In this document: positions 24,101 through 27,100 of the stretch, piece after piece | Numbering within the stretch: the first letter of the stretch is position 1 | Layout of the letters: the number at the start of each line of letters is the position of its first letter | Source of the DNA: Candidatus Enterousia sp. | Lineage (GTDB): Bacteria; Pseudomonadota; Alphaproteobacteria; Rs-D84 | Length of the DNA: 64,000 bases | NCBI GenBank assembly: GCA_045648945.1 | Contig: JAZROX010000013.1 | Coordinates: forward strand, 2,507-66,506 | Direction of reading: 5' to 3' | Position numbers: made by a program

Positions 24101-27100
24101 ACCAAGAAATCCGCCACAACGCGCATATCACGTGGCGTGCCCCGCCCCGATAACAACCGTGACAACGAACGCCCAACATCCGGCACGCGCGCCAACATAT
24201 CGGTAACCATTCCGCGCACATCCGCATTCAAAACCATATGAGAAATGTTTTCTTGGCGGGTTAAAATTTCAGAGATATCCCCCGACAAATTCCGCAGATA
24301 AGACCGTAATTTGCGCCCACCGGCCGCCGTTTTTGTATTATCGATAACATCCAATAAACACCGGCCACCTTCGTTTATTGGTGCATCTATTTCCAAACTT
24401 TTCCATGTGGCAGAATCTATCAATAACTGCGCCCCAGATTTGAATTCATACGGCGCCCGGAAAGTCAAAACTGCACCACGTTGGGTATTAAACAAATATC
24501 CCGCCAATAGCGCCACCGCCGCATTAGAATTTTTCGGCACATCAGAAAAAACACTTTGAATAATTGTATCTATGTCGCCACGACGATAAATCTTTTCAAA
24601 GACCGGCGTCGATTTGAACATATCGCGAATATCCAAAATCGTATTATTTTCGGCATCTATGGATGGATAAATAACCTCGGCCGGATCGGTGCGAACCAAA
24701 TCGTCAATAATATCGTCTGTATGTCCGACAAAGAATTCCCCGGTTGAAATATCACAACCCGCAACATCAAAAGAATTGCCACCGGTGCATACAACCGCAA
24801 CCAAGAAATTCGAACTTTTCGGCATCAACAAGTTTTCATCGGTCAATGTTCCAGGTGTTAAAACGCGCACGATTTTTCTTTCTATAAATTTATGACCGCG
24901 TTCTTTGGCCTGGGCCGGAGTTTCCATTTGCTCGACCAACGCCAATTTATAACCCATTTTAACCAAACGCCCAAAGTAATTGTCCGAAGCGTGCCACGGA
25001 ATCCCACACATTGGAATATCAACCCCGTCGCCATCCGTTCCGCGTGAAGTTAAAACCAAACCCAATTTTGAACTAATAGTTTTTGCATCTTCAAAGAAAG
25101 ATTCGAAAAAATCGCCCAAACGAAACATAAGCAATGCGTCGGGATTTTCGTTCTTGAAATCCACGTATTGCTGCATAACGGGCGTAAGTTTAGATTTTTC
25201 AGGCACGTTCAATCCATTATTCGTTTGGCGTCGTTGTCACCTTTAATGTTTCGATTTTTAATTCCGCCTCTTTCAGCAACTGTTCACAATACGCTTTCAG
25301 TTTTATTCCCTGTTCATATGCGGCGACAGAATCGGCCAAAGGCAATTCGCCCGATTCCATTTTTTTCACCAATTCGGTCAGTTGTTTATAGGCTTCTTCA
25401 AATGTCAATTTTTCGGTATCCATATTAAAACCTCTTGTTGCAAGACAAGATACAAAATAAAATTTGAATATTCCACAAAAAAACACCCAGTCGGGTGTTT
25501 TTTTAGTGTTTAGTGGATAGTGTTAGTGGTTAGTGGAAACGGCGCAATGCGCCGTTTTAAGTGGATTTTTGGCATTTTAACATACAGAACCCACGATGAA
25601 ACAGGCACATTAAAATATGCTCTGGTATGGGGTCCAGTCCGCGTTCATATCTGCGCAATTCTTTTAATGATATTCGAAATATTTTCGCGGCGTCACGTCT
25701 TTTTACGTTCTGTTCCTGGCGCGCCCGATGCAAAATTGCACCGTAGTATTTTGTATCAATCAATACGACCATTTTCTCCTCCTTGGTTTTGTATTCAAAT
25801 AAAATACCGCCAATGACGAATTGACGGTTGGAGGCTAGAAAACTGTAGAGATAACAGTGTCGCTTATTCAATATATTCGCAACCCTCCAACCAAGTGGAG
25901 TAGAATCTCTAAGGGGTTTTCTAGACCCCGCAACGGTGTCACCCGTGCAAGGATAGTATAAACAAAAACGGTTGCATTTGCAACCGTTTTTACTAATCAC
26001 TAACACTAACCACTATTACTTCGCTGGCTTTGCCGGGGCGATAACAATTGACTTGGTTCGCTCGTCGGGTTTGGAACGACTTTCCAATGTGCCACGTTCG
26101 CCAATCAATTCAACAACATGCGCAAACAAACCCGGAATTGCATCTTTACCCATCGCCAATACACGTTTAGACCCGTGTGTCATAACCGCGATTTTAACCT
26201 TGTTGCCTTCGTCCAAAAATTCAAAGACTTTTTTCAATTTGATTTGCAAATCATTTTCTTCAATGAATGGTTTTACCCAAACCTCTTTCATTTCAATTGT
26301 TTTTTGCTTCTTTTTGGCTTCGGACGCGCGTTTTTTCTGTTCATATTTGTATTTACCAAAGTCCATTATTTTGACAACCGGTGGTGTGGCATTGGCGTTT
26401 AATTCCACCAAATCCAATCCCATATCTGCGGCCATCGCCAATGCGGCCGCGATAGGCATTTCCCCCATATTTTGACCATCAGAACCGATAACCTGAACAG
26501 ATTTTGCAACTATACGATTATTTATGCGCGGGCCCATATCCCGGCGATTATCACGATTATTAGACGTTTTAATTGTACGCTCCTTTTAATGTTACGTGCA
26601 AAATTATTAAATATTTTTATGCAATTTTCAACATTTTTTGAACATTTTGTAAAACGTTCCATACATCGGCCTTGGCGCCGGGTTTTAATATAAGGTAATT
26701 TGGATGATAAATCGGGAATACACGAATACCGTTTGGCAACGTGATTTCGGCCCCGTGGTTCTTCATCAAGTCAACGTTTGCGACCTCGGTTGCCGCCAAA
26801 GTGCCAAGCGTCAGTATTATATGCGGTTCTAATAATTCGATCGCCCTGTTCACAAATGGCCGCGCCAGGTCCAATTCGATTCGTGTCGGTGTCCGTCCGC
26901 CGGGCGCGCGCCAAAACATCAAAGGTAATACAGAAACGCTTTCGCGTGACATACCAATTGCCGCCAACATTTTATCCATCAATTCGCCCGCCACGCCGGA
27001 TAATATTTTTCCAGATGCGTCATCATCACTGGACGGCATATCGGTGATTACAACCAATCCGTTCGGATTCGGCGCCACCGTTGGTGGAACCACATTCGTC

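Follow-up and report, generated by a model that had tools for sequence, protein, structure and literature searches.

What purpose is served by a long-range RNA helix in front of a small regulator gene when its sequence changes from copy to copy and its complementarity is kept? The question is raised by a 64,000-nucleotide (nt) stretch of Candidatus Enterousia sp. DNA (contig JAZROX010000013.1, positions 2,507 to 66,506; hereafter the window), in which the minus-strand segment 25983-25773 is probably a promoter followed by a structured leader of about 150 nt, belonging to a multi-copy leader family and preceding a gene for a small helix-turn-helix (HTH) protein of the XRE type. A first-pass annotation had noticed that this leader (B), a second HTH leader (A) and a third family member (E) share an outer helix whose strands differ in a compensatory way, namely TAGAGAT/ATCTCTA in B, AACACAA (1982-1976)/TTGTGTT (1920-1914) in A, and TTTGAGTTG (51338-51346)/CAACTCAAA (51424-51432) in E. 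All of these strings were found at their coordinates, on the minus strand for A and B, and in A the helix extends to TAACACAA (1983-1976) and TTGTGTTA (1920-1913). Our analysis confirms that the compensatory helix is real, and it most likely helps to decide whether transcription stops before the regulator gene, marking the terminator-permissive state of a two-state leader.

The argument depends on the order of parts in leader B (coordinates in Table 1). Two hairpins, P0 and Px, are followed by segment Y, which is the 5' strand of the helix, and by a short segment, seg1. The core then consists of seg2, hairpin 1 (H1), hairpin 2 (H2) with segment Y' in its loop, a linker X' complementary to the segment X within Px, and seg3. 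Several stems vary in concert on both arms: P0 among the HTH leaders, as read in the sequence (for instance GCATTGG..CCAATGC and GCACAGG..CTGGTGC), Px across the copies (GGGG/CCCC, GAGG/CCTC, GGAT/ATCC, TAGG/CCTA), and H1, for which the covariation GTCTC/GAGAC in A and GTTGC/GCGAC in B holds both in the strings and in the pair counts. The 15-nt loop of H1 is invariant, and seg1 is longer (CTCCAACC) in the leaders of secreted-protein genes.

The long-range helix is supported by a much larger sample than the three copies in which it was noticed. Among the first 13 copies, the upstream segment complementary to the H2 loop had 12 different sequences, and the second segment, X, was complementary to the linker. 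Independent best-match searches placed X 2-8 nt 5' of Y in about 70 of 82 leaders, and the internal loop between the X/X' and Y/Y' helices has a fixed asymmetry of 1-3 nt in 87 of 99. The two strands do not vary independently, since 81 leaders contain 76 distinct Y' regions and each of these matches its own Y. In a permutation test on the longest Watson-Crick run, with the register optimised equally for cognate and non-cognate pairs, the Y/Y' run in these leaders was 7.51 for cognate and 5.15 for permuted pairs (z = 24), and the X/X' run 7.40 and 5.01 (z = 20); for the 41 HTH leaders the corresponding values were 7.22 and 4.79 (z = 17) and 7.54 and 5.31 (z = 12). In none of these four comparisons was the cognate value reached (0/20000 permutations).

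Pair counts were made on 52-nt mini-sequences anchored on X/X' and split by loop asymmetry. In these alignments 78% of the cells are paired (52-53% after shuffling), 285 cells are doubly changed, compared with 91 +/- 8 in the shuffled sets, and the covariation score is 0.67 against 0.18 (0/500); within the class of leader B the doubly changed cells are 153 against 47 and the score is 0.68 against 0.19, whereas slid controls score 0.11-0.22. All four Watson-Crick pair types occur at the central Y/Y' columns. On the sense strand G.U pairs outnumber A.C pairs by 123 to 49 (p = 1.6e-8), and thus the pairing is selected at the RNA level. Cognate duplexes in wide windows are also stronger by RNAduplex (-19.7 versus -14.0 kcal/mol), although this measure is noisy because of the conservation of X within subtypes. 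A whole-leader MAFFT alignment (A4) was left out of the pair counts because, with spacers that vary by 1-3 nt, it puts Y and Y' out of register. The helix noticed earlier is one block of a longer interrupted helix, in which GGGG:CCUC is followed by X/X' and then by Y/Y'. The description of it as an outer helix holds in one of two folds; with respect to seg2:seg3 it does not nest but crosses.

The rate at which this helix changes is unusual. In pairs of leaders with flanks 85-97% identical, the identity of Y is bimodal, either 1.0 or about 0.33. Between loci L008 and L021, from the -10 box into the coding region, there are 20 differences, 16 of them within Y/Y' (27 columns) and 4 outside it (210 columns); the comparison of L008 with L006 gives the reverse picture, with 0 differences in Y/Y' and 21 elsewhere. 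Stepwise compensatory changes are seen as well, for example AACATATAG/CTATATGTT versus AACTAATAG/CTATTAGTT. As the helix changes faster than the unpaired spacers, neutral drift does not account for it. Possible causes are selection for private specificities, as in antisense immunity or incompatibility, or gene conversion between paralogous leaders with identical middles.

The helix competes with seg2:seg3, which it crosses. In 84 cores, pairing in the local fold (fold B: seg2:seg3, H1 and H2) reaches 95%; doubly changed cells number 253, compared with 66 after shuffling, and three to five pair types occur at each position of H2. The first-pass annotation had described seg2 and seg3 as identical (GGTTGGAGG/CCTCCAACC), and inside the genus they are; but in other genera seg1, seg2 and seg3 covary three ways, GGCAGGAGG occurring with CCTCCTGC, GGTTGGAGT with ACTCCAAC, and GGTAGGAAG with TTCCTAC. 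X lies within the Px loop (7-9 nt), Y' comprises the H2 loop and 1-3 stem nucleotides of its 3' arm, and X' begins inside that arm. Thus complete X:X' and Y:Y' pairing rules out Px and H2, and since both sets of helices covary, both folds are under selection. When leaders A, B, D and E were folded without constraints, the minimum free energy (MFE) structure of each was fold A, that of the long-range helix, together with the full terminator. For fold B, the full terminator was included in the scoring of leaders A and B, and the best fold B of these two is 6-13 kcal/mol less stable than fold A. Of 106 leaders, 99 have a hairpin directly followed by a T-run, and the 5' arm of this hairpin includes the final 2-4 nt of seg3 in 96 of the 99. 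Because of this overlap, seg2:seg3 strips the terminator of its G-C base, which fold A leaves intact. Covariation supports each of the helices in either fold, and seg3 shares bases with the terminator.

We therefore consider a two-state leader with mutually exclusive folds A and B the best reading of the family, and give it a probability of about 0.6. In fold A, the predicted ground state, Px with X, and Y, would pair with the 3' half of the core via GGGG:CCUC, X:X' and Y:Y'; this long helix would enclose the seg1:seg2 hairpin and H1 and would sequester seg3 over its 5' half but not at its terminal ACC, so that the intrinsic terminator could be completed and transcription would stop before the gene. 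In fold B, Px and H2 would form as local hairpins, and the 9-bp seg2:seg3 helix would close the core and remove the G-C base of the terminator, allowing readthrough or, in some relatives, freeing a Shine-Dalgarno sequence instead. We infer that the RNA actually switches, with fold A as the off state and fold B as the on state. Candidate triggers would be a factor recognising the invariant H1 loop, which could be an effector-binding site, or a cognate RNA acting in trans.

At locus L043 (core 1501-1570, minus strand), from another family of the order, seg3 is directly followed by TTGGAGG-ATG (gaccacTTGGAGGaaaatATG) with no U-run, and loci L034, L042 and L054 are likewise devoid of a U-run. Judged by its sequence, L043 can be a Shine-Dalgarno-sequestering, translational platform, with seg3 able to pair with the Shine-Dalgarno region.

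Several points weigh against the two-state reading. A search for RNA runs containing the sequence found none. As the terminator shares just 2-4 nt with seg3, it is uncertain how strong antitermination would be. A pseudoknot of X:X' with seg2:seg3 is topologically possible, in which case the folds would be only partly exclusive. In-silico masking of X-Y gave mixed results, leaders B and D going to fold B, and A and E to seg1:seg2 plus the terminator. Finally, the anchored alignments were sorted by best register, which favours structure, whereas the permutation test is free of that bias.

In its general layout the family resembles terminator/antiterminator leaders, such as riboswitch platforms and the anti-antiterminator/antiterminator/terminator leaders of the PyrR type, which likewise consist of three competing segments and an intrinsic terminator. 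A predicted G+C-rich hairpin abutting a U-run lies between leader and gene and has a competing pairing, and the Shine-Dalgarno-sequestering version replaces the terminator in some relatives. The present family departs from such leaders in a terminator overlap of only 2-4 nt and in a long hypervariable helix that would lock the off state, a part that riboswitches lack. No ligand or protein is known for it; in the Rfam scans no riboswitch family matched, and the invariant H1 loop could be a binding site.

A closer parallel is found in the c4/CI-type antisense RNAs, which to our knowledge have so far been known from phage and prophage immunity regions. As a positive control, the CI RNA of phage P4 was recovered as a member of the C4 family (RF01695, clan CL00128) at 74.9 bits, and isrK (RF01394; 60.8 bits) and c4-a1b1 (RF03163; 44.1 bits) were matched upstream of it. 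The P4 leader consists of a 5' hairpin, a hairpin with GTGAGAA in its loop, TTCACAGG and a terminator; about 95 nt further on, in the P4 core, CCTGTGAA occupies the loop of the second hairpin and TTCTCAC lies in the linker. In the order of parts and in pairing logic, seqA plus CI RNA thus has the same topology as Px(X)-Y ... Y'-X' in our leaders, where the H2 loop and the linker (as a' and b') complement an upstream a1b1/seqA-like element of the same transcript. In both cases two hairpins and a linker are closed by an outer helix to form the core, and the RNA belongs to the leader of the operon that it regulates or, in our family, is predicted to regulate. The c4 region of P1 and P7 (a1b1, a'b', a2b2) is of the same kind as the P4 immunity region. 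P1 and P7 differ in these complementary segments and so have separate immunities, and in P1 and P4 the core is processed from the leader by RNase P and acts in trans.

The differences from P4 are equally clear. In our family the a1b1-like element adjoins the core (13-50 nt) without an intervening terminator or spacer, the terminator is fused to seg3, an extra segment, seg1, competes for seg2, and no downstream seqC/a2b2 target was detected: in the 160 nt downstream, cognate complementarity equals non-cognate (5.59 versus 5.52 and 5.34 versus 5.17). Furthermore, about 22 copies per genome stand before cellular HTH and secreted-protein genes, whereas P4 has one copy in the phage immunity region. 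The C4 model gave no hit at E <= 1 anywhere in the genome, and neither the models of clan CL00128 nor those of c4-a1b1 and isrK gave any at E <= 10 in 25700-26050. The leader family fails every model-based membership test; by analogy of architecture, it appears to work like the c4/CI-type modules and probably descends from them.

The only Rfam family with a detectable score is sRNA-Xcc1 (RF02221; 32-35 bits). Leader B scores 32.0 and leader A 34.3 bits, below the gathering threshold of 53 bits, and genome-wide only 4 of the 22 copies, all of the HTH type, exceed 30 bits. The alignment covers seg2/seg3, H1 with GAAUA...AAUAAG, and H2, so that both the outer helix closing two hairpins and the conserved GAAUA...AAUAAG of hairpin 1 are shared. 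The prophage or integron context with antirepressor genes is not, the genes downstream here being XRE-HTH genes, secreted-protein genes and small open reading frames (ORFs); at genuine sRNA-Xcc1 loci four of six scanned downstream ORFs were of antirepressor type (Bro-N, KilA-N, P22_AR). Twelve such genuine loci (L177-L188; 68-77 bits) have a Px(X)-gap-Y arrangement 65-130 nt upstream of the core, with cognate versus permuted runs of 7.2 versus 5.5 and 7.7 versus 5.4 (0/20000). Their X-Y element, which is uncatalogued, complements the hairpin-2 loop and the linker and is followed by its own hairpin and a T-run. These sequences suggest that RF02221 belongs with the C4/c4-a1b1 clan. Most copies in our genome have no distal H1 hairpin of the sRNA-Xcc1 kind; in leader D (40284-40365) and in the copy C45:81549-81630 the conserved H1 loop contains an extra hairpin (GAATAA-[hairpin]-AAATAA). 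It is located at the very site of the distal hairpin of genuine sRNA-Xcc1, and most copies here thus look like deletion derivatives.

Given these parallels, the most serious competitor of the two-state leader is an antisense circuit of the c4/CI type acting in trans, which we regard as unlikely but deserving attention. Terminated leaders would be processed to a core of about 70 nt displaying Y' in a loop and X' in the linker, and this core would pair only with X-Y of nascent transcripts of its own locus, for which Y/X would be the specific address, and would thereby set termination or readthrough; such a circuit would be compatible with the cis fold. It would agree with the topology of phage P4, whose CI RNA pairs with seqA and seqC and brings about premature termination (PMC4825925), and with the occurrence of the same X-Y element at genuine sRNA-Xcc1 loci. 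X and Y' both lie in hairpin loops, as in antisense kissing systems, and the divergence of Y/Y', which is much faster than that of the unpaired flanks, fits private specificities among some 22 copies per cell. Gene conversion between paralogous leaders could produce the same hypervariability, however, and both partners are already present in each leader, 60-100 nt apart, with the cis helix as the predicted MFE. Also speaking against the circuit are the lack of a cognate target in the 160 nt downstream, the absence of any sign of processing or of a stable core RNA, and the ambiguous outcome of blocking X-Y in silico. The hypervariability of Y/Y' is the basis both of this alternative and of a still more tentative reading, in which each of the about 20 leaders per cell has a private, fast-evolving X/Y address, and terminated leaders or processed c4-like cores act in trans on their own locus only. 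Such leaders might then form genome-wide orthogonal RNA 'immunity' circuits, domesticated from modules of the phage P1/P4 type by gut Alphaproteobacteria with tiny genomes.

An improbable alternative is a static pseudoknot, in which X:X', a kissing Y:Y' and seg2:seg3 would coexist in a stable terminated small RNA that serves another function, the gene being expressed by constitutive leak-through. The strand from X' to seg3 is continuous and could stack X:X' on seg2:seg3, the connecting loops are presumably long enough, and a terminator is found in nearly all copies. A single structure does not, however, explain why seg1 covaries with seg2 as a second partner, which calls for an alternative state, nor why the Px and H2 stems, incompatible with the full X:X' and Y:Y', covary too; the Shine-Dalgarno-sequestering version of some relatives argues for regulation of the downstream gene.

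The genomic setting of leader B is that of an insertion. The inserted unit (25500-26018) consists of an array of TAGTGGT heptads, a hairpin, the promoter, leader B, the HTH gene, a second hairpin and an array of CCACTAA heptads, and it is placed between the stop codon of infC and the original infC terminator (AAAAAACACCCG..GGGTGTTTTTTT). In the closest relative (L097 1099-1180; IF-3 95% identical) infC is followed by the same terminator and xseB, with nothing between. Thus the unit of leader and HTH gene, about 520 bp, behaves as a mobile cassette with inverted heptad arrays at its ends. In relatives any core was found near infC in only 3 of 51 loci, which, together with the empty site, makes a vertical comparison at this locus impossible. 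This insertion between inverted arrays, and the description of sRNA-Xcc1 from integron cassettes, could suggest that the inverted repeats are DNA-level recombination or folding sites like integron attC or transposon ends, but that is highly improbable given the excess of G.U over A.C on the sense strand, the invariable promoter-to-terminator position in the sense orientation of the gene, the location of the repeats inside the cassette and not at its ends, and the presence of the same leader before secreted-protein genes outside cassettes.

The family is widespread. A search with a simple pattern yielded 13 copies in the genome (1.25 Mb), and a covariance model of the core (R1) raised the number to 22. 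Of 301 genomes from the order, 256 are matched by R1, often with at least 16 copies each, and 21 of 29 genera are represented among them. The relatives are uncultured rumen and gut Alphaproteobacteria known from metagenome-assembled genomes, many titled Candidatus Enterousia. Of 151 genomes of the genus, 50 have homologs of the HTH gene, and an R1 core is directly upstream at all 30 of the 30 sampled loci. One HTH leader, at L074 (= L007; core 1760-1827, minus strand), is chimeric: its upstream part is of the secreted-protein type and shows no Y:Y' or X:X' complementarity, and its HTH gene has an in-frame TGA, so that a broken leader and a broken gene are found together. This broken copy fits the two-fold picture.

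As to the remaining features of the locus, the -35 box of the leader B promoter is inside a hairpin 3' of infC, and the same promoter layout recurs in leader A, in the copy C52_103674 and in others. The leader B HTH protein matches Pfam HTH_31 and HTH_3 below threshold; its paralog behind leader A passes HTH_3. Both leaders are open in frame with their HTH genes (ORFs of 149 amino acids, 25557-26006, and 112 amino acids, 1625-1963, both on the minus strand, with GTG/TTG starts), and thus gene callers may extend the annotated HTH proteins too far, across the leader RNA. A leader-peptide or coding interpretation was considered, as the frame in B is open into the HTH gene, and rejected, since the stems change in a compensatory manner and Y changes wholesale, which is not coding-like. 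The other copies in the window are listed in Table 1. Further G-rich hairpins lie between the terminator and the start codon of the secreted-protein gene in leaders D (40187-40280) and E (51455-51555), namely CCCCTTCAG..CTGAAGGGG and GGACCGGCGGAGCCGGTGGGG, and such hairpins are also present in the divergent copy (6030-6090) and in leader L001. Two tRNA genes (1444-1539 and 18668-18763) form a 96-nt repeat family with 73% identity, and one of them is directly 3' of HTH cassette A.

Table 1. Elements of leader B and further copies of the leader family, in window coordinates
Feature	Position	Strand	Details
Leader B promoter	25955..25983	-	promoter scan: TTGCAA, 17-nt spacer, TATACT
P0 hairpin GCACGGGTGACACCGTTGC	25930..25948	-	RNA 5' end; in every predicted fold
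Px hairpin GGGGT-CTAGAAA-ACCCC	25913..25929	-	X CTAGAAAAC (25924-25916) in loop and 3' arm
Y TAGAGAT	25905..25911	-	5' strand of the outer helix of the first-pass annotation
seg1 CTCCA	25896..25900	-	alternative partner of seg2; in predicted fold A
Core, c4/CI/sRNA-Xcc1-like	25826..25892	-	model R1 score 79.1 bits
seg2 GGTTGGAGG	25892-25884	-	core part
H1, conserved loop GAATATATTGAATAA	25883-25859	-	core part
H2	25858-25842	-	loop contains Y' ATCTCTA (25852-25846)
X' linker GTTTTCTAG	25843-25835	-	pairs with X
seg3 CCTCCAACC	25834-25826	-	pairs with seg2, 9 bp
Intrinsic terminator ACCGTCAAT-TCGTC-ATTGGCGGT and U-run	25798..25828	-	terminator scan; hairpin 25828-25806; 5' arm takes last 3 nt of seg3
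Shine-Dalgarno AGGAGG and XRE-type HTH ORF	25557..25781	-	ORF list; ATG 25772-25770; 71 amino acids
Leader A	1845..2055	-	architecture of B; core 1961-1893
Divergent copy	5810..6103	+	core 5925-6006; seg2/seg3 GGTCGGGGT/ACCCCGACC; Y ATACACATT, Y' AATGTGTAT
Leader D	40187..40445	-	core 40365-40284; Y as in E, X differs (TAACGAC); extra hairpin within H1 loop
Leader E, 5' of secreted-protein gene	51300..51555	+	core 51384-51451

New in this analysis are the quantitative covariation tests of the Y/Y' helix and its hypervariability, the recognition of X-Y as an analogue of a1b1/seqA that is common to P4 and to genuine sRNA-Xcc1 loci, and the empty-site evidence for the leader and HTH gene as an inserted cassette. 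The analysis also links three separately filed Rfam entries, namely C4, c4-a1b1/isrK and sRNA-Xcc1, the sRNA-Xcc1 loci carrying a partner of the a1b1 type. The Y/Y' helix is also a clean natural experiment, with more than 70 sequences at one structural position and near-identical leaders differing almost only there, so that specificity swapping is directly testable, and it leads one to ask how cross-talk is avoided among paralogous RNA switches. If the two-state model holds, a c4/CI-type regulator would have been compacted into a self-contained attenuator that serves cellular genes, with dozens of uses in each genome of a large uncultured gut and rumen lineage. Should the reading of private addresses also be true, each gene for a surface protein or regulator would have its own self-controlled, possibly bistable, switch.

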